Assembly (NCBI GenBank): GCA_028284385.1
Contig: JANQRT010000005.1
Span: forward strand, 15,660-79,659
Direction of reading: 5' to 3'
Origin: Opitutaceae bacterium
GTDB taxonomy: Bacteria > Verrucomicrobiota > Verrucomicrobiia > Opitutales > Opitutaceae
DNA length: 64,000 nt
Shown here: positions 6,317 through 51,572 of the stretch, in pieces
Layout: every line of letters begins with the position of its first letter
How positions within the stretch are numbered: position 1 is the first letter of the stretch
The notes under the pieces: model-generated
What the model saw: only the letters and a program-made list of their open reading frames with translations
What the model was told of the DNA's origin: nothing
The model's database searches: none
Translations under genes and position numbers: made by a program

Positions 6317-7897
6317 TCAATCATAGGAGACGATAAGTCTGAAATCGTATATAGCGAAGCTCAATGCCCTTGGATCTGGATTAATACGAGTGGCCATTTG
6401 AGGAGACTCGATTTTCAAACGATTCATTCCAGGAGCGAGCGTCATAGGTACGTTTAGTTGGCTGGAGTAACCACTGCTGCTGGTGTATTTCCAGATTTGG
6501 GCCTCATTTAATGAAAGCCCGATTTCTCGCGGATCCAAAGTTTTGGCAGTAAAACGAAACTCCGCGTCTATTGGCTGGCTGTTGGGATTGGTAATCTCTA
6601 TCCAAGCGCTCCCACTCGACCATCGCCAATAGCGTTCTCTATCCCCTTCCTCCTGATACCAACCTTGACCGAAAATAAGGTCCCGATAGGTCTTTCGTTC
6701 AAAGTCATATACGACGCCCGACGCTCCCTCCAAACGAGTGGTTTCCTGAATTCGAGTAAAATCAAACTGGCTGACTCCGAATACTGCGGAAAGATTAATC
6801 AGAACTAGGGCTGGAGCCAATCGGGCTTCTCGGGAAAAAAGGATGTTGAAGCTGACTAGGAGCGGCAACGCTAGTCGGTAAATCGCCCACTGATCGTCCA
6901 GCCAGACTTCCTTGCTGGCTAGTCCCAGCAAAATGCAAAAACCAATGCCTACACGTCTCCACGCGGAATTCCTGGGCGCGAAGAAGATCACGTAAACGCC
7001 CTGGAAAACGACTGATCCGATCAGAAGCAGTGTTACGAAAAAAGACATTCGAAATCCCGTTTCACCAGCATCTTTGAGATTTTCGAGCAGAGCTTTGGCC
7101 AACCCGAGCAGCGGGAAGTCGAGGAACGTGGATTGCGACCAGAAGGCTAGCGCGTTGCCGTAGGATAAAATAAGCCACGCTGTCCATCCAATGAGCGGGA
7201 CTAAGGTCAGAGCCATTAACGAAACCCCTCTGGCTTGTTTCTCCTCCTCAAAGAAAGAACCGCCTGCTAGCAAATTCGTCTCTTTACCCAAGCCGGCGAA
7301 TCCCAAAACGATGGCAGCTGGCCATAAATGAGAGCCTTCTAGCAATCGCATAGCCAATAAAATGAAAAAGAGGCTGGGGCCTTCGAGAAACGCGTACTGC
7401 AAGCTCGATAAGAGTCCCACCGAAAACAGAATGCCAGCATAGCGAATGACGTTTTGCCAATCGTTTGGAGGAAACCAGCGAAGCAGAAGCCAGGCGGATC
7501 CTAGCCAGAAAATGAAATTTTGAATACAGTAGGCTTGCAAAATCCAATTTGGTTTGCCGAATCCAAGGATATATGCCGTCCATGAGAAAAAGATGCGATG
7601 AGCTTGGAATGTGGATACGGATTCGGCATTGCCAATCGGATCCAAAGCGTTTTTCGCGTAATGCTGGCCTGAATATCCGTCGCTATGGGAGTGAATAAAG
7701 CGTTTGGCTTTCAGCAAAGCGTCGCTTTGGGCGCTTTTTTCGGAATCGCCGAAATGCGCCAACTGAGTGAGGCCGAAACGCGAATCATACTGCCCGATCA
7801 TGGAAACGACAACATACAACCCTATGATCATGTAGATCAGAAAATAAAGCTTGTGGGCATGCTTTGATGCCAAGTCTTTAATCAGATCGACGTTCAT
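6317..7897 (-). CDS. polytopic membrane protein, possible GT-C-type glycosyltransferase (hypothetical)
   Basis: 526-aa ORF with about 10 hydrophobic segments, then a soluble C-terminal region of about 150 aa (GWYQEEGDRERYWRWSSGSAWIEI...). The functional call is tentative. Confidence 0.55.
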   Translation of the reverse strand: MNVDLIKDLASKHAHKLYFLIYMIIGLYVVVSMIGQYDSRFGLTQLAHFGDSEKSAQSDALLKAKRFIHSHSDGYSGQHYAKNALDPIGNAESVSTFQAHRIFFSWTAYILGFGKPNWILQAYCIQNFIFWLGSAWLLLRWFPPNDWQNVIRYAGILFSVGLLSSLQYAFLEGPSLFFILLAMRLLEGSHLWPAAIVLGFAGLGKETNLLAGGSFFEEEKQARGVSLMALTLVPLIGWTAWLILSYGNALAFWSQSTFLDFPLLGLAKALLENLKDAGETGFRMSFFVTLLLIGSVVFQGVYVIFFAPRNSAWRRVGIGFCILLGLASKEVWLDDQWAIYRLALPLLVSFNILFSREARLAPALVLINLSAVFGVSQFDFTRIQETTRLEGASGVVYDFERKTYRDLIFGQGWYQEEGDRERYWRWSSGSAWIEITNPNSQPIDAEFRFTAKTLDPREIGLSLNEAQIWKYTSSSGYSSQLNVPMTLAPGMNRLKIESPQMATRINPDPRALSFAIYDFRLIVSYD

Positions 7898-27185: not shown

Positions 27186-27710
27186 TTAGAAGCTGGGCAA
27201 CTTGATGTCCGCTTTTTGCACTAGACCCATTATCTCTTTAACCAGGTTTTGGGCCATTTGCAGCTCTTTGCCGTATTGCGTTTTAAAGGATTCGACTTGC
27301 TCAAGCGTTTGGGGGCTGAACTGGGCGACTAGCTTTTCCAGGTGCTTGATGCTTTCCTCAAGCTTGGGCAGCTTCTCTTCGATGACCTTGGCGATATCGC
27401 CCGGCAGCTTGTCTTTGAGTTCGCTCACTTTGGACTCCACTGATGCGAATTGAGTCTTAAGGTCTTCATTGCTTGAAGTGAATTGGGCGACCAGGGCTTT
27501 GGTTTGCTCTTGGAGCTGAGCGCTGAGTTCCTCCTTCACTTTGGACATGCCTTCGTCAACCGACTTATTAACGTCAGCCAGACCCTTGTTCAGGGCGTCT
27601 TGGGTTTCCTTAGCGGTTTCTTCGGCTGTAGGCTCGTTACTTGAAGAGCAGCCGACCGCGATCAGCATAGCCAAGGTTAAACATAGAATTTGAGCGAGTA
27701 ATGATTTCAT
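27186..27710 (-). CDS. helical-repeat lipoprotein (hypothetical)
   Basis: Signal peptide plus lipobox (LIAVGCSS) after MKSLLAQILCL. The rest is apolipoprotein-like amphipathic helices rich in E/K/Q. Confidence 0.6.
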   Translation of the reverse strand: MKSLLAQILCLTLAMLIAVGCSSSNEPTAEETAKETQDALNKGLADVNKSVDEGMSKVKEELSAQLQEQTKALVAQFTSSNEDLKTQFASVESKVSELKDKLPGDIAKVIEEKLPKLEESIKHLEKLVAQFSPQTLEQVESFKTQYGKELQMAQNLVKEIMGLVQKADIKLPSF

Positions 27711-27916
27711 AGATGTGTTCCGTTTATGGTGAATGGGGCAGCCTCGATCTCGGGTTCGATTCAAAAGTTCTCCAATGGAAGCATTCTCAGCCTTGGCTAA
27801 CAGTGTGATGATTCAAGAGAGATAAAGGACGTATCAACCTGGAGCATATTGAGTTGTGTGCAGAGCTTTGCAATACCCAATTCTATTTCAGAAAATAGGT
27901 GATTGCTTTATGGTAT

Positions 27917-30523: not shown

Positions 30524-32179
<1,656 letters not shown>

Positions 32180-32226: not shown

Positions 32227-33825
32227 ATGGCCAAGCTTTTGATAGAGGTGCCTATCCCCTCCATGGGGGCGACGGTTAACGAAATGACTTTGATCGATTT
32301 GCTCTGCGAGGCAGGCAAGCGCATCACTAAGGGCGAGAAGCTGGCCGAGATGGAAAGCGACAAATCCATCTTCGATTTCGAAGCTCCCTGTGATGGCATC
32401 ATTCAGCGCATTTTTTGCAGGGCAGGCGACATCCTTCAGGTAGGTTCTCCTTTTTTGAGAATCGAGACTGAGGATCCTGCCATGAGCCATCTCGAGATTT
32501 CCGATGGAGATGATCAGCCCACTGATCTCTCTGCCGAAGCGGCTACTCCTTCCTCCAAAACCGCCGCTCCTCTTCCGGAAATCACAACCGTGAGCAGGGA
32601 GCCACTCGGATTGACCTCGACTCCTTCAAAACCTAAGGCGGCCGCTCCTAGATGGACCCCAAGGGCCAGAAAACTCGCTCTTGAAAAAGGCATCGATCCG
32701 GAAACGATTACGGATATCGTAGGGACGGGCCCTGGTGGCAGAGTTACGGGCGACGATCTCGATACTTACGTTGCTACGGTTCCAACTCACCAGAACGAAG
32801 GGCAGGTTGGGCAGGCTTCTGTTGTCGAAGATCCTCTGGAAGCTCAAACCGTTTGTTTGGCTGGTGTCGGCTACGCGGTTCCTAAAAGCGTTCGATCGAA
32901 TAACGAGATTCTTAAAGAGTTTCCCGGGAAGACGGAAGAAGAGATTCTCAAAGTGACGGGTATCGAGCAACGGTATGTGATTAGCGAAGGCGAATCGGCC
33001 ACTAGCCTTGCCACCGATGCGACACGAGGGGCGCTCAACATGGCGGGTCTGCAAGCCACCGATATCGACGCTGTCATTGTGGCGACACTACTTCCCGACC
33101 AGCCGGTGCCGGGAGCTGCCAGCGCTTTGGCAAAGGTTTTGGGGGTCGAGAAAGCCTTGGCTTTCGATTTGAATGCCGCTTGCTCAGGCTGGCTCTATGC
33201 TCTGGAAGTGGGACGTTCCTTCATTTGCGGTGGGACCGCTAAGAACGTTTTGGTGGTGACGGCTGAAATCCTTTCCAGCATCACCAATCCGAAAGATCAC
33301 TCGACGGCTTTTCTTTTTGGCGATGGAGCGGGCGCGGCGATTTTGACCCCTCAAGACGGTGGCCACCGGCTTTATCGTCATCACTTGAGTGGAGATGCTC
33401 AGTATAGCGATGCGATTTCACGAGCGGGCGGTGGTGCCATGAATCCCATCCCTAAGCCGGGACAGGATCTGGATCCTTTCTATTTGAAACTCGATGGGTC
33501 GGTTGTCTTCAAGCGAGGCGTGATCGCATTCGCGGAAATCATTGAACACCAGATGAAGCATCACAGCCTTAGCGCCGACGATGTCTCCTGGATTGTGCCT
33601 CACCAGGCCAATGCTCGAATTCTCAAAGCGGTTAGCAAGCGAGTCGGCATTCCTTACGAAAAGTTTGTGGTTACGATTGGCAAATATGGCAACACTTCGG
33701 CCGCTTCCGTATCCATGGCTTTGGGATGGGCCGCCGAAGAAGGCATCTTCGAAGAAGGCGACAAGATTATCTTTTGTTCCGTAGGAGCTGGCTTCACCTA
33801 CGCGGGTGGATTGCTCACCTGGTAG
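32227..33825 (+). CDS. fusion protein: lipoyl-attachment domain + peripheral-subunit (E3)-binding domain + beta-ketoacyl-ACP synthase III (FabH)
   Basis: Single 532-codon ORF. Lipoyl motif EMESDKSIFDFEAPCDG. PSBD sequence TPRARKLALEKGIDPETITDIVGTGPGGRVTGDDLDTY. KAS III triad: Cys in NAACSGWLYAL, His in PHQAN, Asn in GNTSAAS. Confidence 0.85.
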   Translation: MAKLLIEVPIPSMGATVNEMTLIDLLCEAGKRITKGEKLAEMESDKSIFDFEAPCDGIIQRIFCRAGDILQVGSPFLRIETEDPAMSHLEISDGDDQPTDLSAEAATPSSKTAAPLPEITTVSREPLGLTSTPSKPKAAAPRWTPRARKLALEKGIDPETITDIVGTGPGGRVTGDDLDTYVATVPTHQNEGQVGQASVVEDPLEAQTVCLAGVGYAVPKSVRSNNEILKEFPGKTEEEILKVTGIEQRYVISEGESATSLATDATRGALNMAGLQATDIDAVIVATLLPDQPVPGAASALAKVLGVEKALAFDLNAACSGWLYALEVGRSFICGGTAKNVLVVTAEILSSITNPKDHSTAFLFGDGAGAAILTPQDGGHRLYRHHLSGDAQYSDAISRAGGGAMNPIPKPGQDLDPFYLKLDGSVVFKRGVIAFAEIIEHQMKHHSLSADDVSWIVPHQANARILKAVSKRVGIPYEKFVVTIGKYGNTSAASVSMALGWAAEEGIFEEGDKIIFCSVGAGFTYAGGLLTW

Positions 33826-33829
33826 TCGT

Positions 33830-34579
33830 CTAGCCGTTTGATATTTCCTGTCGCACGATCGATAAAATCGATACCGCAGCTGTCTCGCATCGCTGTACGA
33901 ACGGTCCAATGGTTACGGGTTTAAAATCGTGTTTGGCGATGGCTTTGTACTCTTCTTCGCTGAAGTCTCCTTCTGGTCCTATTAGACAGGCCACGTTCTT
34001 TGGCTGGAATTGATGTTTGCCTCTGAATTCCGAGAAAACGTCCTTAACCATGCGCGTTTCGGGCTGTAGACTCGCTACGATGTTAAGATCGAAGAAGTCT
34101 CCCAAAGTGTACAGCAACGGTTGAAGGGCTCCGATCTTGGGGAGGAAAGGATTACCGCTTTGCTTGGCTCCCTCGATTGCCGCTGCCTTGAGCTTAGCCA
34201 TTTTATTGGCTTGCCGATCCGTAATGATCTTCAACTCGGTTCGCGAGGTGATTATCGGAAGAATCTGCCATACACCGAGCTCCGTCGCTCTTCGTACGAT
34301 GCTTTCCAAGCCTTTCCCTTTGGGAGCGGCCAGAATCAAGGTGATGTAGCGATCCGGCTTTTCATGAACCTTGTAGGTTTTTGGCGTAAGGACTGCTTGT
34401 TTTCCGTCAGCCACTTGGATTTCACACTGCCATTCCACCCCATCACCATTGAACGCGATTACTTCGTCTCCCTCTCGAGCTCGATTGGTGTTTATCAGGT
34501 GGTGCGACTCTTCGTTGGACAGCTCGATGCGGTCAGTTCTTAGAACGGTGGCGTCGCAGTAGCATCGAAAATCCGACAT
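33830..34579 (-). CDS. rsmE: 16S rRNA (uracil1498-N3)-methyltransferase
   Basis: 249 aa with an N-terminal PUA-like region and the C-terminal SPOUT motif LIGPEGDFSEEE. Confidence 0.85.
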   Translation of the reverse strand: MSDFRCYCDATVLRTDRIELSNEESHHLINTNRAREGDEVIAFNGDGVEWQCEIQVADGKQAVLTPKTYKVHEKPDRYITLILAAPKGKGLESIVRRATELGVWQILPIITSRTELKIITDRQANKMAKLKAAAIEGAKQSGNPFLPKIGALQPLLYTLGDFFDLNIVASLQPETRMVKDVFSEFRGKHQFQPKNVACLIGPEGDFSEEEYKAIAKHDFKPVTIGPFVQRCETAAVSILSIVRQEISNG

Positions 34580-35210: not shown

Positions 35211-35296
35211 GCCCAGGTGGCGGAATTGGTAGACGCGCCTGACTCAAAATCAGGTTTCCACCGGAAGTGAGGGTTCGAGTCCCTCCCTGGGCACCA
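35211..35296 (+). tRNA. tRNA-Leu (anticodon CAA)
   Basis: Hand-folded cloverleaf. Acceptor GCCCAGG/CCTGGGC, anticodon stem CCTGA/TCAGG with loop CTCAAAA, long variable arm, T arm GAGGG-TTCGAGT-CCCTC, and an encoded CCA. Confidence 0.95.
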
Positions 35297-35532: not shown

Positions 35533-35610
35533 CGGGCCATGGCGCAGCCTGGTTAGCGCGCTTGTCTGGGGGACAAGAGGTCCCGAGTTCGAATCTCGGT
35601 GGCCCGACCA
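35533..35610 (+). tRNA. tRNA-Pro (anticodon GGG)
   Basis: Hand-folded cloverleaf. Acceptor CGGGCCA/TGGCCCG, D stem GCGC/GCGC, anticodon stem CTTGT/ACAAG with loop CTGGGGG, T arm CCGAG-TTCGAAT-CTCGG, and an encoded CCA. Confidence 0.95.
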
Positions 35611-36412: not shown

Positions 36413-36799
36413 ATGGCAGGTGACACGATAAAGCTTTCCAAGCTGGAAATGGATGTGATGGGTTCCTTTTGGAAATTGGGTAAAGCGACGGTGAGGGAGG
36501 CTCACGAGGCGATTCCGGATGGGGCAGGAAAGCCGGAATACACGACTGTTCAAACGATTATCAGTCGATTGGAGGCCAAGGGGGCGGTGCATCGCTTGAA
36601 AAAAGTGGGCAACGCCTGGATTTACGAACCGCTAGTATCCAGAAAATCGATCGTGGGAAAAATCGTCGATGATCTTTTAGGTCTTTTAGAGGGCGCGGCT
36701 AGTCCGATTGTTTCTCACCTGGCGGAGAGTGGGAAGCTCTCCGAGGAGGATGTGAAAGAAATCCAAGAGATCATCGCGAAATCGGAGAAGAAGAAATGA
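36413..36799 (+). CDS. BlaI/MecI/CopY family transcriptional repressor
   Basis: 128-aa winged-helix protein (LSKLEMDVMGSFWKLGKATVREA...YTTVQTIISRLEAKGAV). Its end overlaps the start of the M56 sensor gene by 4 nt. Confidence 0.85.
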   Translation: MAGDTIKLSKLEMDVMGSFWKLGKATVREAHEAIPDGAGKPEYTTVQTIISRLEAKGAVHRLKKVGNAWIYEPLVSRKSIVGKIVDDLLGLLEGAASPIVSHLAESGKLSEEDVKEIQEIIAKSEKKK

Positions 36800-38082
36800 A
36801 TGATATCGGCATTAAGTCTTTTGAGCTTTTCCTTCTGCATCTCGGCGAGTCGACGGTCTTTGCTCTTATAGCCGTTACCTTCGCCAGCGCTCTACGCCTG
36901 AAGAAAGCGAAGAACCGCTATCTGTTTTATCAATTGGCTCTTCTGAAATTCCTTCTGCCGATTGGCGTTATCGCGGCATTGGCATTCAGGTCGTTTGGAG
37001 CTTCCTCTGAAACGCTAAACGAGCTGGTTGTCACTACGGTATCCAAATCTTCTGACTACGTAGCGAATCAAGCTTCAGGGGGATGGATTGTATTTCTATT
37101 GGGAACATGGATTGGAGGCGTGCTGTGCATGACCATTGCCCATGGCATTGGCCTTTCTCGAGTTCGCAAGCTGGTTTCCGATTCGAGCGTTCCGGACGAC
37201 TCGGCGATGAAGCGTATCCATAAAATTCTGGCAAGAACGGGTTTCGCCAGTGCCGGCAAGTTGCCTTTTTTTATCAACAATCGATTCGCTTCTATAGGAA
37301 TAGCAGGATTTTTTAGACCCAGAATTATTATCAACGCGACGTTTCTTGACGCTTTGTCGGACGAGGAGTTGCTAGCCGCGTTTAAGCATGAGTTGGCTCA
37401 TGTGGATCGACGCGATAATCTTTGGCATATCGTTCATGCTTCGATTGTGACCCTTTTCTGGTTTCATCCGGTAGCGTGGATACTTCGCTATCAACTTCGG
37501 TTGGAAAGCGAGTTGGCTTGTGATGAAGCTGCCCTGCTGACGGGCGAATCTCCACGCGACTATGCCGAATGTTTGTTGAAAGCAGCTTCCTACCATCACC
37601 ACTACAAGAATAGCTGGGTGACGGCCTTTACCGCAAAATCGCTTAAGATGCGTATCCGCAAAATCGTTAACTTCGAAAAAGGAAAAGAATCCATTATGAA
37701 ACTGATAACAATGCATCTTGTTGCATTCTGCGTCGCGGGGCTGTTTCTCGGCGCCTCGACCCATCTCCATGCCATTGGCGATGCCGGACAGGAAACGACC
37801 TACGAACTTAAGGATCTCGATACCCATCCTAAACCGCTGCACCAGGTACAGCCGAAGTATCCTTATGAACTCAAGAAGCAGGGAATTGCGGGTTGGGTGA
37901 AGCTCGAGTGGGTCATCGACTCCCAAGGAAACGTCGTCCGTCCCAAAGTTTTGGAGTCATCGCTGAGGGATTTCGAGCAACCGGCAATCCAGTCCATTCT
38001 CGAGTCGAAGTGGCATCCTGGAACGAAAGCAGGCAAGGCCGTTTCCGTTCGCGTTAGGCAGAGGATGGATTTCCAGCCGTAA
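36796..38082 (+). CDS. BlaR1-like M56 peptidase sensor with C-terminal TonB-type domain
   Basis: 428 aa with N-terminal TM segments, the zinc motif HELAHVDRRDN, a further TM segment, and a TonB_C-like end (PKYPYELKKQGIAGWVKLEWVIDSQGNV). Confidence 0.8.
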   Translation: MNDIGIKSFELFLLHLGESTVFALIAVTFASALRLKKAKNRYLFYQLALLKFLLPIGVIAALAFRSFGASSETLNELVVTTVSKSSDYVANQASGGWIVFLLGTWIGGVLCMTIAHGIGLSRVRKLVSDSSVPDDSAMKRIHKILARTGFASAGKLPFFINNRFASIGIAGFFRPRIIINATFLDALSDEELLAAFKHELAHVDRRDNLWHIVHASIVTLFWFHPVAWILRYQLRLESELACDEAALLTGESPRDYAECLLKAASYHHHYKNSWVTAFTAKSLKMRIRKIVNFEKGKESIMKLITMHLVAFCVAGLFLGASTHLHAIGDAGQETTYELKDLDTHPKPLHQVQPKYPYELKKQGIAGWVKLEWVIDSQGNVVRPKVLESSLRDFEQPAIQSILESKWHPGTKAGKAVSVRVRQRMDFQP

Positions 38083-40233: not shown

Positions 40234-40701
40234 TCACATGCCAGGTCCTTGTAGTTGTTTTTGCAATTCAACTTGAAAAGTCTGCAAGTCGTCTTCCGAT
40301 GGCTGATAGCCCTCCTTGCTCGGATCAAGGGCAAGTCGGCCATAGGGATCCACCGTCCAGGTGGCTGTTACGCCATCGCTAAAGGTGACGCTTCCGCTCA
40401 GAGCGGCTCCTGGGCGTTTGATGCGGTCGACTTCAACGGATACGGCGCCGTCTCCTACTAATTCTGGACTGTCGTCTACCAGATCGGTGGTGGCGTTTGC
40501 TGCCATGTTTGAGTCCTCGCTTTCGGCGGGCTTTTCCTCGGGCTTCAGATCGAGATTCAAGTCGTCGAGCAGAAAGCGGGCTTCCATGTAAGTCATGGCG
40601 ATACCGAAGTCCTCATTTATCAGTTTCTGGATGTCGGCTATGGAGTCGCCTTCTTCGAGACGTCGGGCTACGGTTTGCTTCTGCTCGTCGCTAAGATTCA
40701 T
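40234..40701 (-). CDS. hypothetical protein
   Basis: About 155 aa from MNLSDEQKQ. Acidic, with no recognisable motif. Evidence is only ORF length and codon usage similar to its neighbours. Confidence 0.5.
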   Translation of the reverse strand: MNLSDEQKQTVARRLEEGDSIADIQKLINEDFGIAMTYMEARFLLDDLNLDLKPEEKPAESEDSNMAANATTDLVDDSPELVGDGAVSVEVDRIKRPGAALSGSVTFSDGVTATWTVDPYGRLALDPSKEGYQPSEDDLQTFQVELQKQLQGPGM

Positions 40702-40784
40702 ATTGGGAGTTTTTAGAATGCAATTTTGGTCAAGGCGCAACTGTCTTTGTCTGGCAAACCGGAAACTTTCTTCAAGCGGTTTTG

Positions 40785-40858: not shown

Positions 40859-42241
40859 CTATTTCGAAAGCTGGTTTTTCAAATACTCGAGACTATGACG
40901 CACGGTTTCGTCTTGGTCGATGAGGTTTTCGACCTGACGACAGGCGTGGATGACGGTACCGTGATCACGGCCGCCGAACGCTTCGCCAATTTCCTGCAGA
41001 GAATGTTTGGTGAGTTCCCGGCTCAGATGCATGGCAATCTGCCGAGGCACTGCAATGTGATTGGGACGTCGGCGACTTAGCATGTCGGAGTGACGGAGTT
41101 CAAAATATTCGGCTACCTTTTTCTGGATGGCCTCGATAGTCAGCTGCTGTTTAGCAGCCTCCATAAGCACGTCGCTGAGGAGCATTTCGCAGGTGGAAAT
41201 TTCGAGCGGCTTTCCTGTTAGCGAGGAATAGCTGCATACTTTGATAAGGGCGCCTTCAAGGCGTCGGATGTTCTTAACGATGTGTTGGGCGATGAAGTTG
41301 ATGACTTCGTCGCTTACGTTGAAATTGTGTTGTTCGGCTTTCTTACGAAGGATTGCGACACGCGTTTCGAGATCGGGTGCCTGAATATCCGTGACTAGCC
41401 CCCACTGAAAGCGGGATACTAGGCGACTTTCGAGCTTAGCGATTTCGTTGGCTGGCCTATCGCTGGAGAGAAAGATCTGCTTCTGCTGTTCGAAGAGGTC
41501 GTTGAAGGTATGAAAGAATTCCTCCTGTATTCGTTCTTTCCCGCTGAGAAACTGAACGTCGTCAAGCAGGAGTACGTCCACGCTGCGGTAACGCTGCCGG
41601 AAACGAGTGAGGGTGTTTTCCTGAATGGCGCTGATGAACTCGTTGGTAAACTTCTCGGAGGATAGATAAACGACCCGAGCGTCTTCCTTCGTCTCCAGAA
41701 TATGGTGACCGACGGCGTGCATCAAGTGCGTCTTTCCTAATCCAGTATCACCGTAGAGGAAGAGCGGATTGTAGGCCTCGGCTGGCGAATGAGCGACCGC
41801 GATGGCAGCGGCATGAGCCAGTTGGCTGTTGGAGCCGATGACGAAATTCTCGAAAGTGTTGCGACGATTGAGATTCGCTTCGTGCGGCTTTTGCCCGATC
41901 CGCATTCGAGCAGGCATTCGCTCTTTCCTGTTTTCGGCTTCTCCGCTTCGAGACTCGTTTTGCTCGACGGCAAGGTCGCCTTCGGCGCTCTGGTTCTGTA
42001 ATGAAACGGATACAGGAAATCCTAGAAAACGTTGAAAGGCTTTGGAGAGCAGATCGAGATAGTTATCATTAATCCAGATAGCGGAAAAGTCGTTCTGCAC
42101 GCCAAGGACAACGGTATTACCTTCGGCTTTCAGGCATGAAACAGTAGAGAACCAGCTATCGAAAATATCTTTCGGCAGGAGTTCGGAGAGTTCGGTTTGG
42201 ACTTTTTCCCAGATTTGGGCGGGCTCGGTGACCTGTGGCAT
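40859..42241 (-). CDS. dnaA: chromosomal replication initiator protein DnaA
   Basis: 460 aa with AAA+ Walker A GDTGLGKTHL, Walker B LLLDDVQF, and a C-terminal DNA-binding signature (GGRDHGTVIHACRQV). Confidence 0.96.
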   Translation of the reverse strand: MPQVTEPAQIWEKVQTELSELLPKDIFDSWFSTVSCLKAEGNTVVLGVQNDFSAIWINDNYLDLLSKAFQRFLGFPVSVSLQNQSAEGDLAVEQNESRSGEAENRKERMPARMRIGQKPHEANLNRRNTFENFVIGSNSQLAHAAAIAVAHSPAEAYNPLFLYGDTGLGKTHLMHAVGHHILETKEDARVVYLSSEKFTNEFISAIQENTLTRFRQRYRSVDVLLLDDVQFLSGKERIQEEFFHTFNDLFEQQKQIFLSSDRPANEIAKLESRLVSRFQWGLVTDIQAPDLETRVAILRKKAEQHNFNVSDEVINFIAQHIVKNIRRLEGALIKVCSYSSLTGKPLEISTCEMLLSDVLMEAAKQQLTIEAIQKKVAEYFELRHSDMLSRRRPNHIAVPRQIAMHLSRELTKHSLQEIGEAFGGRDHGTVIHACRQVENLIDQDETVRHSLEYLKNQLSK

Positions 42242-42760: not shown

Positions 42761-43747
42761 CTACTGTTTCGTCTCTTCGGCCATCAGGGCGATAAGCCGA
42801 TCATTGAACTCCTTCGCTGGATCGTGGCCTATGCGTTTCAATGCCTGCACCATTGAGGCGACTTCTACTAGACGAGCCATATCTCGGCCTGGTCGAACGA
42901 ACAGTTCCACGTGGGGCACGTCCATGCCTAGAATGGTGTAGTAGTTCTGTTCGAGTCCGGTGCGGTCCTCGTCGGCATCCGGCGTGACGTTTTTTAGTGA
43001 AATGACAAGATCAATACGCTTGTCGGGTCGGACGCTGCGAACGCCAAACATTTCGCCGACATTTATGATGCCGATTCCTCGACATTCCATGTGCCCGAAA
43101 TTCAACTCCATGCTGGAAGCTAGCAATTCGCGTTCGTTGATGAGCTTAACGCACGTCAAGTCATCGGCCACGATACTGTGACCTCGCTCGATCAGAGCTA
43201 ATGCGCATTCGCTTTTGCCTATGCCGCTATCTCCTCTGATCAACACGCCTATCCCCTTTATGTCCATCATCGTTCCATGTTCTGTACTTGAGGGAGCGAA
43301 CTCGCTATCCAGCGCCAGTGTTGCCGCGTTGATATAGTCCATGGTGATCATCGACGTGCGAAAGATCGGTATGCTACGCGTTTCGGCGATGCTTTTCATC
43401 GTAGGCAAGGGATTATAATGGCGAGCAACTACAAAGCAGGGTACGGAACGGTCTACCAGAGCGCTGAGCCTTTCCCTTTGAACTTCCGTTGAAAGGCTTC
43501 GCAGATAGTTCATTTCCGCCGCGCCCAAAACTTGGAGACGCTTGTTGGCGAAGTATTTGAAAAACCCCGTTAGAGCTAGGGAAGGTCGATTGACACTCCC
43601 TTCTTTAATTACCCGCCGCAGGCCGCGTTCTCCGCAGGCAAGCTCCATTTTCAGATGATCCGCATGGGTCTCATAGAAATCCTTCACGGATAGACCGTCT
43701 ATTTTCTTGATCGACTTGGAGTATTGCATGGGGAAGGGAATGAACAA
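42761..43747 (-). CDS. hprK: HPr kinase/phosphorylase
   Basis: 328 aa with the P-loop GDSGIGKSE and the downstream signature region LELNFGHMECRGIGIINV. Confidence 0.9.
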   Translation of the reverse strand: MFIPFPMQYSKSIKKIDGLSVKDFYETHADHLKMELACGERGLRRVIKEGSVNRPSLALTGFFKYFANKRLQVLGAAEMNYLRSLSTEVQRERLSALVDRSVPCFVVARHYNPLPTMKSIAETRSIPIFRTSMITMDYINAATLALDSEFAPSSTEHGTMMDIKGIGVLIRGDSGIGKSECALALIERGHSIVADDLTCVKLINERELLASSMELNFGHMECRGIGIINVGEMFGVRSVRPDKRIDLVISLKNVTPDADEDRTGLEQNYYTILGMDVPHVELFVRPGRDMARLVEVASMVQALKRIGHDPAKEFNDRLIALMAEETKQ

Positions 43748-44607: not shown

Positions 44608-45254
44608 TATGCGTCAGGAGCTTCCACTCCGCCAGGCGTGTTTTCGTTAATCGGCTCTCCGAGATCACTATCTTCACCAGTTTGAACTGGGGGTTTTACC
44701 GCTTCCTCCATTTGTTCGGGATCGTCTTCGTCGAAACCGAAATCTCTTATCGGAGGACCAACAAATCGAATCAATTCGTTGCCGTTCCCAGGAATGAAGA
44801 TGCGTCCTTTGCCTCTTTCGATAATCAATTCCGGACCCGAAAACGTCACTCCTGCTTGAACCACGACCGGGTTATCATAAAGATGGATACTGTCTTCGTT
44901 GGGCTTCATTTCCAAGCGTCCTGCGGTTGCAGTGCGTTCTGCTTGGGTAATGCTCACGTCGCCTATCGCTACAATTCTCTGAATGGGACTGAAGTCGCCG
45001 ATAGGGGCGTCTTCAGGACCTCGCCTCAAGGTATAGGCCTCTAGCCTGTCGCAACGCATGTCGAGATTGGTTGCCGAGAGCTGTACGTTGTTGTTGAAAA
45101 TGAAGGAAGCGTTAGTCCCGTCATTTTCTACTAATACAGGACCGTTGCATTTGATTTCGGTCTGCCTCAGGGGCTTGTCGTTGGTTTGCGAATACGTCGA
45201 AATCCCAGAAAGGATGGCTGCCAGAACGAGAGCCGGGTAAGATAGAATTTTCAT
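44607..45254 (-). CDS. lptA: LptA/OstA-like periplasmic LPS transport protein
   Basis: 215 aa with a signal peptide and beta-rich OstA_N-like repeats. Its end overlaps the lptB start by 1 nt. The call rests mostly on context. Confidence 0.6.
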   Translation of the reverse strand: MKILSYPALVLAAILSGISTYSQTNDKPLRQTEIKCNGPVLVENDGTNASFIFNNNVQLSATNLDMRCDRLEAYTLRRGPEDAPIGDFSPIQRIVAIGDVSITQAERTATAGRLEMKPNEDSIHLYDNPVVVQAGVTFSGPELIIERGKGRIFIPGNGNELIRFVGPPIRDFGFDEDDPEQMEEAVKPPVQTGEDSDLGEPINENTPGGVEAPDA

Positions 45255-45721
45255 CGGATGATGTCGCCGATTTCCGCGTTTATGACGACTTTAATATTAT
45301 TGTTGATGATTAGACGTTTTTCGGATCCTTGCCAAATCCAATCCTCTCCGACGGCCTTAAACAAGTCGGACTCGATTTGAATTTCTCCAGGACCTGAGGC
45401 GACCAGTGGATTGAGACGCATGTTGGCCTCCGGGCTCTTCATAAGAGCGATCACCTGGTCTGCCTCGTTTCCGGAGTACTGCTGAAGATCCATTCCCACG
45501 ATTTTCACCTCCTTTTCGGCGGTGTAAATTCCCTGCTTGCCTCGCAAATACCAAGCCCTGAATCCCTGCTCGTTGAAAAGGGGCAGCTTGAAATTCTCCA
45601 CCGGAGCATTGAGAGCCTGGCCCAGCGCAAGACTGGCCAGGACGATCGCCAAGGCCAACACGAACGATCGCCTAGCGGTCGAGTTTTTCAGTTGTTCGCA
45701 TCTTCGAAGTTCGCTATTCAT
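45251..45721 (-). CDS. lptC: LptC-like membrane-anchored protein
   Basis: 156 aa with a single N-terminal anchor and a beta-rich body. It sits between kdsC and the lptA-like gene with 4-8 nt overlaps. The call rests on context. Confidence 0.45.
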   Translation of the reverse strand: MNSELRRCEQLKNSTARRSFVLALAIVLASLALGQALNAPVENFKLPLFNEQGFRAWYLRGKQGIYTAEKEVKIVGMDLQQYSGNEADQVIALMKSPEANMRLNPLVASGPGEIQIESDLFKAVGEDWIWQGSEKRLIINNNIKVVINAEIGDIIR

Positions 45722-46259
45722 TCGACGATTGATTTTCCTGGGAACGAGTAGTTAAAATTCTATTACACACTTCGCGTACGGCTCCATTTCCTCCTGATTT
45801 AGAGGTTATGTAGTCAGCGTTCTGCAAGGCAGGCTCTTGGGCCTCGGGAACAGCGATCCCTATTCCCGCTAGTCGAATGGCGTCGGCATCGATGTCGTCG
45901 TCGCCCATATAAGCCGCCTGTTCCATGGTTAGATCAAGTTTATCGAGAAGCTCCTGCAATGCGGCCGCTTTGTCTTTACGACCTTGAATGACGTGTGGAA
46001 TTTTAAGTTCCTTCGCTCGGATGTCGGTGGCTCCCGAGCCTCTTCCCGAAATCCACGCCACTTCCAGCCCTGCCTCGATCAGGCGGACAATTCCCAGCCC
46101 GTCTATGATGGAGAAGCGTTTCGCTTCCGATCCGTCGGAGGAAATAATGATGCTGCCATCCGTCAGTATCCCGTCTACGTCCATCGCGAAGAGCTGGATT
46201 TTGCTCCAGTCTACCTGGTCTGAGAGCTGAGCCATTTTCGTAGTCAATTCTCCATCCAC
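45714..46259 (-). CDS. kdsC: 3-deoxy-D-manno-octulosonate 8-phosphate phosphatase (HAD-IIIA)
   Basis: 181 aa with HAD motif I FAMDVDGILTDG and GDDDID near the C-terminus. Confidence 0.85.
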   Translation of the reverse strand: MDGELTTKMAQLSDQVDWSKIQLFAMDVDGILTDGSIIISSDGSEAKRFSIIDGLGIVRLIEAGLEVAWISGRGSGATDIRAKELKIPHVIQGRKDKAAALQELLDKLDLTMEQAAYMGDDDIDADAIRLAGIGIAVPEAQEPALQNADYITSKSGGNGAVREVCNRILTTRSQENQSSNE

Positions 46260-48298
46260 TCTATTATCGCCTCCAGGATACTGTCCTTGCTTGGTCGATA
46301 GGCGTTCTCAAGTTCCGGAGCAAACGGGACCGGCGTATCTAACGAGGCGATACGCAGTGGCGGAGCTTCCAGGTCGAAAAAACGTTCTTCGACTATTTGC
46401 GAGACCAGTTCGGCTCCAAAGCCCGAATTGCGGCGGCTTTCGGTGATGACGATCAGTCGTCCGGTACGAGAAAGGGATTGCTTGACGGTTTCTAGTTGTA
46501 GTGGAGCCAAGGCTCGCAGGTCGAATAAGTCGCAGGAACAATCGTATTCAAACTCCAAGTACTCAAGAGCGTCGTTGGCTTGGAGGGTCATTTCTCCATA
46601 GGTCACGACCGTGGCGTAGTTTCCGAATCTTCTCAATGCGGGCTTCCAAATCTCTTGATAGCTCGGATCGAATTTGACGGGAGCCTTCAGCGAATGAAAC
46701 AGTTTCTTGTGCTCGAAGACGAGAACCGGGTTGTCGTCTTCGTGGGCCGCGATCAAAGCATTATAAGCATCCTGAGGGGTGCTGGGGTAGAGAAGTTTCA
46801 GTCCTGGCTGATGTAGATAAAAGGCTTCTAAGTCTTCCGAATGGAAGGGACCGAAATTGATGCCTCCCCCGCATGGTAGCCTCAAGACTAATGGGACTTT
46901 GGCTCCCGAGCGGAAATGGTAAGTCGCCGTGTTTAGGGTGATCTGAGTGGTGGCGTCGGTGGCGAAATCGGCGAACTGGAATTCCACGATTGGACGATGT
47001 CCGGTTATAGCGAGGCCTGTGGCGTATCCGACCATTGAAGACTCGCAAATTGGCGTATTGATGACTCTACTACGTCCGAATTCTTTAAAAAGGTTTTCCG
47101 TAAGTTTGAAGGCTCCTCCGTATTCGGCGATGTCCTGCCCCATGACGAGCGACTCAGGAGAATCGGTCAAAATCTTGCGTTGAGCTTCATTAATGGCCTT
47201 TGAAAAAGTCAAGTTAGGGGCTTCTTGGTCCTCTTCCTTTTTCCATTCGATATCCGCTGTCGAGGGGGAGAACACGTCCTTCCGCATGCCGGCTGGTTGA
47301 GGTCCCGGATGCTTTACACACTGCACCAGCGTCGTATCCACAAATTCCTTAAGAATCGCGTCTTCCTTGTCTAGGATATCCTCAAAGCCTTTCTCAACCA
47401 ATCTTTGTCGGAAGTTCGGAAGGCAGTCTTCGCTTTTCCATTTTTCCGACAACTCGGGATCGATGTAATCGCAGGTATCATAGCCGGCATGGCCTCTCAA
47501 GCGAAGGGAATGAGTTTCAATCAGTATAGGCCGACATGTCTCGCGCGTCTCTTCGATCGCCTGCCAGAATCCTTCGAGATTTTTTTCCAAATGAGCGACA
47601 TCCAGTTCCAGTCCTTTCATACCGTAGCCGGCCGCTCTATCCACTAGCTTGCCTGCGTATTGCTCCTCCAGCGGCGTTGAATAGGCGTACTTGTTGTTTT
47701 CGATGACGAAAACGATGGGCAGGTTTAAGACGCTGGCGAAGTTCAAGGTTTCATGAATCTCTCCGGTGCTTGAGGCTCCATCGCCATAGAAAGTCAGACC
47801 AACCGCCTTCAGTCCTTTTCGACGCTGAGAATCCGTCCCGCCCATCACATTGGAAGACATTTTGCCCAGGTGGCTGATCATGGGAAAGCTGCGATTAAGT
47901 GGGTCGCCATGATGGGCGTTCCCTTCGCGTCCCCCGGTTGGGCTGCCCGCGTTTCCCAAGTACTGGCAGAGATGGTCTCCAACGTGCCCGCTCCAAACCA
48001 GATGGCCAGGCAGTCCCCGATGAGTCCAAGATACGCAATCGATTGCTTTATCCAGCATCAAAGCCAGGGGAGCCACGATGCCTTCATTTCCATCCGAGCA
48101 AGTTACGGTTCCCAACATCTTTCCTTGTCGGTAGAGCTCGAAGATTCGCTCGTCGGTGAAACGGCTGTAAGCCATCCATCGATAGACTTTGAGCAAGTCT
48201 TGATCCGAGGGCTTTCCTCCTTCGAGCCTTAAATCCCGATCCAGGAGGATACCTGGGGTCTCAGGATAAGCGATTTGGCTGGAAGCTTGGGTCGGCAT
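46244..48298 (-). CDS. fused 2-oxoacid dehydrogenase E1 component, alpha and beta subunits in one polypeptide
   Basis: 684 aa. The N-terminal half carries the TPP motif GDGASSTGEIHETLNFASVLNLPIVFVIENNKYA. The C-terminal half is E1-beta-like (GQDIAEYGGAFKLT...RVINTPICE...VEFQFADF). Confidence 0.85.
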   Translation of the reverse strand: MPTQASSQIAYPETPGILLDRDLRLEGGKPSDQDLLKVYRWMAYSRFTDERIFELYRQGKMLGTVTCSDGNEGIVAPLALMLDKAIDCVSWTHRGLPGHLVWSGHVGDHLCQYLGNAGSPTGGREGNAHHGDPLNRSFPMISHLGKMSSNVMGGTDSQRRKGLKAVGLTFYGDGASSTGEIHETLNFASVLNLPIVFVIENNKYAYSTPLEEQYAGKLVDRAAGYGMKGLELDVAHLEKNLEGFWQAIEETRETCRPILIETHSLRLRGHAGYDTCDYIDPELSEKWKSEDCLPNFRQRLVEKGFEDILDKEDAILKEFVDTTLVQCVKHPGPQPAGMRKDVFSPSTADIEWKKEEDQEAPNLTFSKAINEAQRKILTDSPESLVMGQDIAEYGGAFKLTENLFKEFGRSRVINTPICESSMVGYATGLAITGHRPIVEFQFADFATDATTQITLNTATYHFRSGAKVPLVLRLPCGGGINFGPFHSEDLEAFYLHQPGLKLLYPSTPQDAYNALIAAHEDDNPVLVFEHKKLFHSLKAPVKFDPSYQEIWKPALRRFGNYATVVTYGEMTLQANDALEYLEFEYDCSCDLFDLRALAPLQLETVKQSLSRTGRLIVITESRRNSGFGAELVSQIVEERFFDLEAPPLRIASLDTPVPFAPELENAYRPSKDSILEAIIEWMEN

Positions 48299-50333: not shown

Positions 50334-51572
50334 ATGAGGAAGTCAGCAGCACTGAAAATGGTGTTCTCGTTCGCCAAGATCGATCGCTTGTTGGTCGTGG
50401 CTTGCCTCACCTCGTCCCTAATGGCCAGAAGCATCGGCCAGACCCAAGTCTTCGTGTCTCATCAAGACAGGCCTTATCTTGTGGTAGCGATGGATGGCGA
50501 GTACCCAATCATCGATGGCGAAGGCGGGCGGGAGCGGATCTTCAGCACCAAAATGTCAATGCAACGAGCAAATCGCTTCACTGATGGCGGTATTCGGGTG
50601 CTGCAAAAAGATGCGGTTATGGGCCAGGATTACGGTTCGAACCAAGGCAACTTCTTCTTCAGGTTTCGGGTTGAGATTCAAGCGGATCGAGATTTCGAGG
50701 ACTGCTTTATTCTGATTGCCATCGCTCCAGAAGAAGGATCGGAGACTATTTTGATGAGGGAGGTCGAGGATATCGAGGCTGGGGCTACAGACGTTGTCGA
50801 TATCATTGTTCCTGTGAATCCTGGTTTTGGTGGAGGCGGTTATGGATATCACCTCTACTCTCAAGGCGAGGAAATCAAGGTGGATGATCCGCTGGCCAAG
50901 GCGGTTATCCGTCAGCAAGGACTAGAAACTTCGAACAGAGGCGCGCCTCAGAAGCAAGAGCGACCCAGAGAACCTCCTCAATTGGCCTTTCCGGCAAGAG
51001 CGACGAAGACGGTCATGCCTGATTTTCCATTAAACTTGGAAGGCAAAAACATATCGGGGCTGGCTCAGGTGACGTTCGCCATAGATTCGTCGGGAAAGGT
51101 CGTGGAAATCCTTGGCATGGCGGCGGATCATTCGGCATTTCTTATTGAGGCGCGCGAGTCGATATTGGCCAGCTCTTACGAACCGGCTACCTACAATAAC
51201 GAGTCGTTGTTTACTACGGTAACGCAGGTTTTCACCTTCAACGAGTTTGTAAGTTTTGCCGAAGCTTTGGAAATGATTCCGTATCCGAATCTCCCTGACT
51301 CTCAGCCGCGACTATTGCATTCCCCCATTGAGACGCTCAAAGCTTCGGGAATCGATTTTGCCGAAAGCAGTGTCGTTCTACATGGGGTGATCGATCCGCT
51401 TGGGCGTATCCAGCAAGCTAGGATTCGTGAAGCAAACGATCAGAGAGTGGCCGACATGATTTTAGACACAGCCTCCGAATGGGTTTTCATTCCGGCAATC
51501 CAAGACGGGCGACCTGTTGCTCGGCGTATCCAAATTCCCATTAACCAGGAAAGTACAAGTAGCGAAAATTAG
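50334..51572 (+). CDS. secreted protein with two TonB_C-like domains (hypothetical)
   Basis: 412 aa with an N-terminal hydrophobic signal and an unknown N-domain. Two segments resemble TonB C-terminal domains (VMPDFPLNLEGKNISGLAQVTFAIDSSGKV; HGVIDPLGRIQQARI...FIPAIQDGRPV). Confidence 0.5.
   Translation: MRKSAALKMVFSFAKIDRLLVVACLTSSLMARSIGQTQVFVSHQDRPYLVVAMDGEYPIIDGEGGRERIFSTKMSMQRANRFTDGGIRVLQKDAVMGQDYGSNQGNFFFRFRVEIQADRDFEDCFILIAIAPEEGSETILMREVEDIEAGATDVVDIIVPVNPGFGGGGYGYHLYSQGEEIKVDDPLAKAVIRQQGLETSNRGAPQKQERPREPPQLAFPARATKTVMPDFPLNLEGKNISGLAQVTFAIDSSGKVVEILGMAADHSAFLIEARESILASSYEPATYNNESLFTTVTQVFTFNEFVSFAEALEMIPYPNLPDSQPRLLHSPIETLKASGIDFAESSVVLHGVIDPLGRIQQARIREANDQRVADMILDTASEWVFIPAIQDGRPVARRIQIPINQESTSSEN

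Follow-up and report, generated by a model that had tools for sequence, protein, structure and literature searches.

A lipoyl arm joined to beta-ketoacyl-ACP synthase III in Opitutales and its E1 partner: a candidate direct route from 2-oxo acids into fatty acid synthesis

Several ways into type II fatty acid synthesis are known: the condensation catalysed by FabH, or beta-ketoacyl-acyl carrier protein synthase III (KAS III), which depends on acyl-coenzyme A (acyl-CoA); the malonyl-ACP decarboxylase route (ACP, acyl carrier protein); and initiation by FabB/FabY. In Bacillus, Listeria and Staphylococcus, the branched acyl-CoA for FabH is made by the Bkd E1-E2-E3 complex. The E2 component of such 2-oxoacid dehydrogenase complexes carries a lipoyl domain and a peripheral-subunit-binding domain (PSBD), each followed by a linker, in front of a CoA-acyltransferase core. 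Here we describe a gene from an uncultured Opitutaceae bacterium in which the same arm leads into a FabH-like KAS III where the acyltransferase core would be expected. It lies in a 64,000-nucleotide stretch of contig JANQRT010000005.1 (assembly GCA_028284385.1), referred to below as the window. A preliminary description, made from the sequence of the window, had stated that no characterised system of this kind was known; no paper describing a lipoyl-KAS III system was found in the literature searched, in which few subscription journals were covered. In the reading that we favour, and hold with moderate confidence, the fusion is the half that accepts the acyl group in a 2-oxoacid dehydrogenase system which is "E2-less" and passes its product directly to type II fatty acid synthesis.

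The gene and its parts are as follows, with positions in the window, residues of the protein, expectation values (E) and, where they apply, the per-residue confidence (pLDDT, predicted local distance difference test) of a structure model described below.

32227..33825, + strand: whole gene, lipoyl domain-linker-PSBD-linker-KAS III, an uninterrupted ATG-initiated open reading frame (ORF) of 532 codons plus stop
32245..32463, + strand: lipoyl domain, residues 7-79 (Pfam PF00364 Biotin_lipoyl, E 2.4e-12; pLDDT 80-97)
32362-32364, + strand: predicted lipoyl-attachment residue Lys46, in the motif E-S-D-K-S
32464..32655, + strand: linker 1, flexible and Ala/Pro/Ser-rich, residues 80-143 (pLDDT <50 at 97-137; varies among orthologs)
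32656..32760, + strand: PSBD (E3/E1-binding), residues 144-178 (Pfam PF02817 E3_binding, E 3.6e-11)
32761..32847, + strand: linker 2, residues 179-207 (pLDDT <50 at 186-201; varies among orthologs)
32848..33822, + strand: KAS III (FabH-like) domain, residues 208-532 (PRK09352; FabH matches in the PDB; Foldseek)
33181-33183, 33601-33603 and 33691-33693, + strand: the KAS III triad Cys319, His459 and Asn489

This order of parts within one 532-codon frame had been read from the sequence before, and it was borne out by matches in Pfam, NCBIfam and the PDB. All four Pfam domains of the fusion, namely the two given above together with ACP_syn_III (residues 313-388, E 1.1e-25) and ACP_syn_III_C (residues 444-532, E 3.9e-29), exceed the curated cut-offs set for them, the PSBD with 43.5 bits against a cut-off of 23.7. 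The lipoyl lysine, K46, is found in LAEMESDKSIFDFEAPCDG (residues 39-57), and the PSBD in TPRARKLALEKGIDPETITDIVGTGPGGRVTGDDLDTY (residues 144-181). Among the NCBIfam models, the FabH subfamily model PRK09352 covers residues 208-532 with 315.6 bits (cut-off 249), TIGR00747 fabH gives 280.4 bits on the KAS domain, which is under its cut-off of 292.1, and the E2 models of pyruvate dehydrogenase (PDH) and 2-oxoglutarate dehydrogenase (OGDH) reach residues 6-197 only. The fusion has no match to PF00198 or to any other model of the E2 catalytic core, nor does it contain a DHRxxDG motif. The same division of the protein is seen in the PDB, where E2 chains match residues 6-197 and solved FabH chains match residues 204-532 (E ~1e-57).

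The triad residues are located in the motifs AACSGW (317-322, with Cys319), PHQAN (458-462, with His459) and GNTSAAS (488-494, with Asn489); they align with C112, H244 and N274 of E. coli FabH, and the triad is thus intact, as the preliminary description had it. An AlphaFold2 monomer model of the full protein, based on an alignment of 51 orthologs, has a mean pLDDT of 79 and a predicted TM-score of 0.74 (TM, template modelling), and contains three folded domains connected by linkers, in which residues 97-137 and 186-201 are disordered. In its KAS part the model is FabH-like: in Foldseek comparisons with solved FabH structures, the target-normalised TM-scores are 0.80-0.93 for the best 50 matches, 0.89-0.93 for the top 20, and 0.91-0.92 for the structures of E. 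coli FabH.

The fusion is far from being a peculiarity of one contig. At least 120 full-length orthologs with the same domains and 59-100% identity were listed, as 90%-identity clusters, from the Opitutales (Verrucomicrobiota). Their sources include isolate genomes (Pelagicoccus spp., strain DG1235 and Puniceicoccaceae K14) as well as many metagenome-assembled genomes (MAGs) of Opitutaceae, and all of the listed proteins are annotated just as "beta-ketoacyl-ACP synthase 3". An assembly or frameshift artefact, which was considered as an origin of the fusion, is ruled out by so many independent full-length orthologs with isolates among them. In the 51 aligned orthologs, residues E43, S44, D45, K46 and S47 of the lipoyl motif are invariant, and so are W143, T144, P145, A147, K149, G155, T167, G168, P169 and R172 of the PSBD, while the linkers drift in both length and sequence. 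Both arm domains are therefore under selection.

Two observations on individual records can be added. In the ortholog from Opitutales bacterium UBA7389 (L023:7995-9909), the interval between the lipoyl domain and the PSBD is ~100 aa longer, and the tblastn match to the arm is split in two pieces ~300 nt apart. Two lake MAGs (L017 and L065) have record titles reading 'Akkermansia muciniphila isolate ME-09jul19-75' and 'MoH-23oct19-121'; since L017 has an Opitutales-type fusion with a KAS domain 68% identical to that of the window, its species label looks wrong.

More distant relatives were sought among 1.84 billion 50%-identity representatives, which were searched exhaustively and without a profile; this yielded full-length fusions at 35-41% identity: P0123 (511 aa), P0127 (442 aa) and P0137 (510 aa). 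The loci were assigned to lineages from a scan of 185,579 species genomes, which gave many further Opitutales fusion loci and placed lipoyl-KAS III loci in three other phyla:

Spirochaetota: L011, L012
Planctomycetota (Thermoguttaceae, Planctomycetaceae): L020-L022, L034, L042, L046, L048
Fibrobacterota (Chitinispirillaceae, Chitinivibrionales): L025, L026, L028, L030, L033

It is the gene next to the lipoyl-KAS III in these phyla that points to its partner. The window contains, 12.4 kb away from the fusion, a gene that the preliminary description had singled out as a candidate E1:

46244..48298, - strand: fused 2-oxoacid dehydrogenase E1 alpha-beta, 684 aa (Pfam E1_dh + Transket_pyr + Transketolase_C)

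When this E1 alpha-beta was compared by tblastn with every fetched locus, a homolog was found directly upstream and on the same strand in 17/17 distinct lipoyl-KAS III loci from outside the Opitutales, which represent the Spirochaetota, Planctomycetota, Fibrobacterota and two unassigned lineages. The upstream E1 is 39-42% identical to that of the window (37% for the end-truncated copy in L033), and it is separated from the lipoyl-KAS III gene by 12-231 nt, or overlaps it by 4 nt, in those cases in which the genes were called or the start is unambiguous. In L005/L006, L007/L008 and L009/L010 it measures 657-720 aa. By the same tblastn comparison, E1 alpha-beta was within 8 kb of 0/44 standalone FabH loci. 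In the Opitutales, the two genes occur together, with parallel divergence, in every named genome: the fusion and the E1 are 72% and 72% identical to their counterparts in the window in Pelagicoccus sp. SDUM812003, 71% and 70% in P. albus, 71% and 71% in DG1235, and 67% and 72% in Puniceicoccaceae K14. For two more ortholog pairs, the longest contig reported for the fusion is also that reported for the E1 (48,202 and 71,144 bp), a sign that the members of each pair share a contig; L014 derives from the 71,144-bp record. The proposal that the E1 at 46244-48298 is the partner of the fusion is thus backed both by the upstream gene order in all 17 loci elsewhere and by the co-occurrence in Opitutales.

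The most divergent lipoyl-KAS III, P0137, comes from L009:7607-11533 (also L010) and has a large insertion in the KAS domain; its E1 alpha-beta has 720 aa. A Ser/Thr kinase gene adjoins it and [FeFe]-hydrogenase-like genes lie nearby, which hints at an anaerobic host.

The E1 of the window matches the E1 alpha and beta subunits of both PDH and branched-chain 2-oxoacid dehydrogenase (BCKDH) in the PDB. Its thiamine diphosphate (ThDP) motif is intact (YGDGASSTGE...ENN, the GDG...NN pattern), and its His270 aligns with His271 of the E1 alpha of G. stearothermophilus, a residue that helps the acyl group to pass from ThDP to the lipoyl domain (PMC2663715). Because the ThDP motif is intact and the acyl-transfer His is kept, this E1 looks able to acylate a lipoyl arm, as far as can be judged from its sequence.

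The link to E1 also bears on what the lipoyl domain is for. PF00364 spans biotinyl as well as lipoyl domains, so that the arm could be pictured as a non-catalytic appendage, redox-sensing or biotinyl-like, on an acyl-CoA-dependent FabH; or else the enzyme could prime a secondary lipid or polyketide pathway, as KAS III-like enzymes often do, and the PDB neighbours of the KAS domain do include PqsD, BioZ and CorB. We hold either of these to be very improbable. The lysine motif is of the lipoyl type, reading (E/D)(S/T)xK(S/A) across all lineages, with E-S-D-K-S as its form in the window, and the biotinyl Met-Lys-Met motif was not found; the lipoyl domain matches the Pfam family GCV_H below threshold only (E 0.008, 16.5 bits, cut-off 22.2). 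Lipoyl chemistry is indicated both by the PSBD and by the E1 alpha-beta partner, which is obligate. As for a specialised pathway, the genes flanking the lipoyl-KAS III are housekeeping genes that vary with the lineage and include no conserved polyketide synthase or tailoring genes, and the conservation of the fusion is very high over the whole order.

The KAS III domains that are linked to a lipoyl arm form a group of their own. In a neighbour-joining tree (Kimura distance, 30 bootstraps) of 38 lipoyl-linked and 51 standalone FabH sequences, the lipoyl-linked domains were monophyletic in 28/30 bootstraps, and the clade has a single origin. One of its branches consists of the Opitutales and Spirochaetota, which have the PSBD; the other consists of the Planctomycetota, Fibrobacterota and the unassigned lineages, which have none.

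Two variants of the gene are nested among the Opitutales fusions in this tree, one split (L003) and one solo (L038), and both are thus secondary fissions. In the split form (L003:9504-11002 and L004:194-1692), the arm is a separate lipoyl+PSBD gene (156 aa), found 26 nt upstream of a gene for a standalone 333-aa KAS III (P0122), which is 63% identical to the KAS domain of the window; rsmE is the convergent gene downstream, as in the window. This arrangement is a genuine two-gene form, being present on two independent contigs, and the cluster of the split KAS III has 20 members from many contigs. As Rosetta-stone evidence, it speaks for the reading that we favour. In the solo form (L038:7824-8972, Lacunisphaera sp. 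SMAG_U4954), the KAS III is of the lipoyl-linked type, with the equivalent of Trp115 and without Trp32. No lipoyl or PSBD gene was found upstream of it, where the ORFs look unrelated; its arm may have been lost or may be encoded elsewhere.

A residue census was taken to compare the lipoyl-linked enzymes with ordinary FabH. It covered 120 clusters of full-length Opitutales fusions (P0121 and 119 of the at least 120 listed ortholog clusters), together with 8 divergent relatives and 131 standalone FabH sequences, all aligned to E. coli FabH, and the 38 locus-derived sequences were counted as well. In E. coli numbering, the triad residues Cys112, His244 and Asn274 are invariant in every group, namely the 120 Opitutales clusters, the 8 divergent relatives and the 131 standalone FabH, as well as in the 38 loci, and so is Arg249 (Arg464 in the window), which in E. 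coli FabH is the ACP-docking residue. Other positions have been replaced:

Thr28: Thr in 107/131 standalone FabH; in the lipoyl-linked enzymes, Thr in 0/38 loci and 1/120 Opitutales fusion clusters
Trp32: Trp in 127/131 standalone FabH; never Trp in the lipoyl-linked enzymes, which have Glu/Asp in Opitutales and Tyr elsewhere
Arg36: Arg or His in 125/131 standalone FabH; Val/Leu/Ile in 38/38 lipoyl-linked loci
Arg151: Arg in 117/131 standalone FabH; among the lipoyl-linked enzymes, in 0/120 Opitutales clusters and kept in ~12/17 others

Trp32, Arg36 and Arg151 are found in 0/120 Opitutales clusters and are kept in 86-97% of the 131 standalone FabH. All four positions are CoA contacts. In the structures of E. 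coli and Yersinia FabH, Arg36 hydrogen-bonds the pantetheine and Thr28 the adenine of CoA, and Trp32 and Arg151 stack on the adenine (PMC4606726). In the window, the residues at positions 28, 32, 36 and 151 are Lys235, Glu239, Val243 and His358. The clade is further marked by Trp in place of Phe115 in 38/38 sequences and by Val in place of Phe304 in 37/37 (Trp322 and Val519 in the window), and Phe87 is replaced by Val, Leu or Met.

The census also speaks to another reading of the domain, in which KAS III stands in for the E2 core as a transacylase, Cys319 handing the acyl group to holo-ACP or CoA and another synthase carrying out the elongation. FabH enzymes do have an intrinsic acyl-CoA:ACP transacylase activity, the domain sits exactly where the E2 acyltransferase core would, and the ACP-docking Arg is retained. 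We nevertheless consider such a role quite improbable: His244 and Asn274, whose invariance was noted above, serve the decarboxylation and condensation of malonyl and not transacylation, a genuine FabH subfamily model recognises the domain with a score over its cut-off, and the loss of the CoA-binding residues argues against CoA as the acceptor.

The steps of the favoured mechanism, by which the E2-like arm hands its acyl group straight to the condensing enzyme, would be these. The fused E1 alpha-beta (46244-48298) would decarboxylate a 2-oxo acid and then reductively acylate the lipoyl group on Lys46; the likeliest substrates would be branched-chain 2-oxo acids that stem from Val, Leu and Ile, perhaps with pyruvate in addition. 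The acyl-dihydrolipoyl arm would enter the KAS III tunnel of the same dimer in the place of acyl-CoA, and a thioester exchange would bring the acyl group to Cys319. Malonyl-ACP, docked at Arg464, would be decarboxylated with the help of His459 and Asn489 and condensed with the acyl group, giving a 3-ketoacyl-ACP primer. Dihydrolipoamide dehydrogenase (E3) would reoxidise the arm with NAD+, and the PSBD, where present, would recruit it. The lipoylation of Lys46, the transfer from lipoyl to Cys, the identity of the 2-oxo acid and the role of E3 are what we infer from the domains and motifs described above. The same is true of the independence from CoA: the earlier proposal had been that priming goes without a free acyl-CoA intermediate, and what the census adds, indirectly, in its favour is the replacement of the CoA contacts Thr28, Trp32 and Arg36 throughout the clade, CoA independence itself being a deduction from it.

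In a Lacunisphaera MAG (L091:1-3015), an operon sucA-sucB-lpd, encoding the E1, E2 and E3 of 2-oxoglutarate dehydrogenase, is located 5-8 kb upstream of the E1 alpha-beta ortholog, whose context kdsC-lptC-lptA-lptB-hprK is that of the window; the order thus has E3 and lipoate metabolism. The fatty acids of cultured Opitutae are rich in branched chains: iso-C15:0 has been reported at up to 48.6% in Lacunisphaera and iso-C14:0 at 23% in Coraliomargarita parva; for anteiso-C15:0 the values are 10.6-12.1% (two species of Lacunisphaera) and up to 11.1% (Coraliomargarita). Such lipids fit with branched 2-oxo acids as substrates.

E2 cores were looked for in several ways. The Pfam scan of the window took in 41/55 of the listed ORFs of at least 150 aa; the others either overlap larger assigned genes, as apparent antisense or alternative-frame ORFs, or were covered by precomputed Pfam assignments on contig L002. 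By Pfam, the 64-kb window contains no E2 core (PF00198), no E3 and no lipoylation gene, its annotated ORFs being housekeeping or unrelated genes, and no PF00198 gene is present in the Pfam-annotated flanks of L003, L005, L007, L009 and L092. A crude regular-expression search for DHRxxDG over 92 loci gave no genuine E2 core and only two matches, in a 157-aa ORF of L021 and a 372-aa minus-strand ORF of L064, both of which were judged spurious. The sole E2 found nearby, in L091, belongs to the sucA operon.

These results have to be held against a more conventional reading, in which the arm and the PSBD merely dock FabH on an ordinary 2-oxoacid dehydrogenase complex; the arm, once acylated by E1, would unload at an E2 core encoded elsewhere, which makes acyl-CoA for use by the KAS III. 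A PSBD by definition binds the E1 or E3 of such complexes, the Opitutaceae do encode a canonical E2 and E3 (sucB-lpd, L091), a cognate E2 may lie beyond the window and the loci searched, and some affinity for CoA may persist outside the Opitutales, where Tyr32 and Arg151 are kept. Yet Arg36 and Thr28 are lost clade-wide, with Trp32 and Arg151 lost as well in the Opitutales; the forms of Planctomycetota and Fibrobacterota that have no PSBD still keep the lipoyl domain and the operon with E1 alpha-beta; the conserved unit consists of two genes, and in none of the lineages is an E2 core encoded within 8-10 kb; and the only E2 nearby is the sucA-operon member just mentioned. On balance we regard tethering or channelling alone as unlikely.

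The reading that we prefer, direct transfer from the lipoyl arm to the KAS III, has its own difficulties, and the following points weigh against it. To our knowledge, there is no precedent for an acyl-lipoyl domain donating to a ketosynthase. The dismantling of the CoA pocket is complete in the Opitutales only; the other three phyla have Tyr, an aromatic residue, at position 32, and together with Arg151, kept in ~12/17, this means that the forms outside the Opitutales may still bind CoA, so far as their residues tell. The linkage to E1 does not extend to the Opitutales, where E1 was within 8 kb of 0/~20 fusion loci and where the window has the two genes 12.4 kb apart. Planctomycetota and Fibrobacterota have forms without a PSBD, as judged by Pfam and by tblastn coverage, and tethering of E3 or E1 is therefore not essential to the function of the module. 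The scores of the window E1 against PDH and BCKDH are nearly equal (221.7 vs 212.1 bits for beta, 94.3 vs 91.2 bits for alpha), all NCBIfam equivalog scores being under their cut-offs, so that the 2-oxo acid cannot be named from the E1 sequence alone. Finally, there may be elsewhere in these genomes an E2 core of the BCKDH type that is dedicated to the system, or else another, canonical FabH. For the broader claim, namely that the module constitutes a new, CoA-independent route of initiation that arose once, is now found in Opitutales, Spirochaetota, Planctomycetota and Fibrobacterota, and in some of these organisms may serve as the main FabH or the sole one, we see the balance as even.

The two neighbours of the fusion, and the only RNA genes found in the window, are:

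30548..32179, + strand: pyrG, CTP synthase (NCBIfam PRK05380, 835 bits), 47 nt upstream of the fusion
33830..34579, - strand: rsmE, 16S rRNA methyltransferase (NCBIfam TIGR00046), the convergent downstream neighbour
35211-35296, + strand: tRNA-Leu(CAA)
35533-35610, + strand: tRNA-Pro(GGG)

The rsmE neighbour is kept in L003, L004 and L092, and the Opitutaceae locus L092 keeps the order pyrG ... fusion-rsmE. Elsewhere in the window, dnaA (40859-42241, - strand) and a non-coding stretch of ~520 nt before hprK (42761-43747) indicate that the window probably adjoins the replication origin. At 36413-38082 (+ strand), a 128-aa ORF, possibly a BlaI-type repressor, overlaps by 4 nt the gene of a BlaR1/M56 peptidase with a C-terminal TonB_C domain; a second TonB_C protein is encoded at 50334-51572 (+ strand). 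Four minus-strand ORFs have no Pfam match: 6317-7897 (526 aa), 27186-27764 (192 aa), 40234-40740 (168 aa) and 45251-45721 (156 aa), the last of which occupies the lptC position between kdsC and lptA. One large protein that was met with during the searches, P0183 of Anthocerotibacter panamensis (WP_218080544.1, 1124 aa), is also annotated as beta-ketoacyl-ACP synthase 3; it has a FabH domain at residues 805-1119 only, with ~800 residues before it, and is an unrelated FabH fusion.

If the proposed hand-off is true, it would add a further entry point to type II fatty acid synthesis, and a lipoyl arm would for the first time be seen to deliver its acyl group to an acceptor other than an E2 core and CoA. 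It would explain the iso and anteiso lipids of the Opitutales, the Thermoguttaceae, the Chitinivibrionia-like Fibrobacterota and some spirochaetes, which are abundant clades of water and soil. It would also offer a compact device of two proteins that turns 2-oxo acids into branched or unusual primers and spares the CoA pool, which would be attractive for engineering. Even without a direct hand-off, there is a coupled and mis-described module behind hundreds of database entries that carry generic labels such as "beta-ketoacyl-ACP synthase 3", "thiamine pyrophosphate-dependent enzyme" and "transketolase".

How, then, does the module compare with the systems that are already known? With the E2 of PDH, BCKDH and OGDH, such as E2p of G. 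stearothermophilus, the fusion shares the order of a lipoyl domain with its Lys at a beta-turn, an Ala/Pro linker, a PSBD and a second linker, and E2 likewise works with a ThDP-dependent E1 of the alpha/beta type. The difference lies in what follows: E2 has the CoA-acyltransferase core of PF00198 with its DHRxxDG motif, whereas the fusion has a KAS III of the thiolase fold. The E2 core assembles into a 24- or 60-mer, which would not be expected of the fusion by analogy with FabH enzymes, which are dimers; and the acyl acceptor, which is CoA in E2, would in the fusion be the Cys of the enzyme and then malonyl-ACP. With FabH, the fusion shares the fold, the triad and Arg249, and the TM-score of 0.91-0.92 applies as well to S. 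aureus FabH and B. subtilis FabHA, from two species whose FabH prefers branched chains. Its KAS domain shares 33-42% identity with the closest standalone FabH representatives and 31-36% with most of the solved FabH structures, and it is set apart from them by ~207 extra N-terminal residues and by the replacement of Thr28, Trp32 and Arg36 (and Arg151).

In terms of its proposed chemistry, a close parallel is the priming of FabH by Bkd, which would start from the same input, a branched 2-oxo acid, and end in the same output, namely a branched 3-ketoacyl-ACP. Unlike that pathway, the module would need neither an E2 core nor free acyl-CoA, the arm and the condensing enzyme being placed on one polypeptide or in adjacent genes (L003). 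In terms of evolution, the nearest analogy is actinobacterial OdhA/KGD, in which the E2o catalytic domain is reportedly fused with E1o and uses the lipoyl domains that E2p carries. OdhA provides a precedent for the dismantling and re-fusion of 2-oxoacid dehydrogenase modules; it keeps, however, the E2 acyltransferase core and CoA as the acceptor, whereas in the fusion the core has been replaced by an enzyme of another superfamily. The 156-aa lipoyl+PSBD protein of the split form (L003) can be likened to the H protein of glycine cleavage and other free lipoyl carriers, with the difference that the H protein has no PSBD and that the lipoyl domain of the fusion is of the E2 type. Taken together, the fusion is best described as a bridge between two known kinds of system, being E2-like over its first ~200 residues and FabH-like in its fold, its triad and its ACP site.

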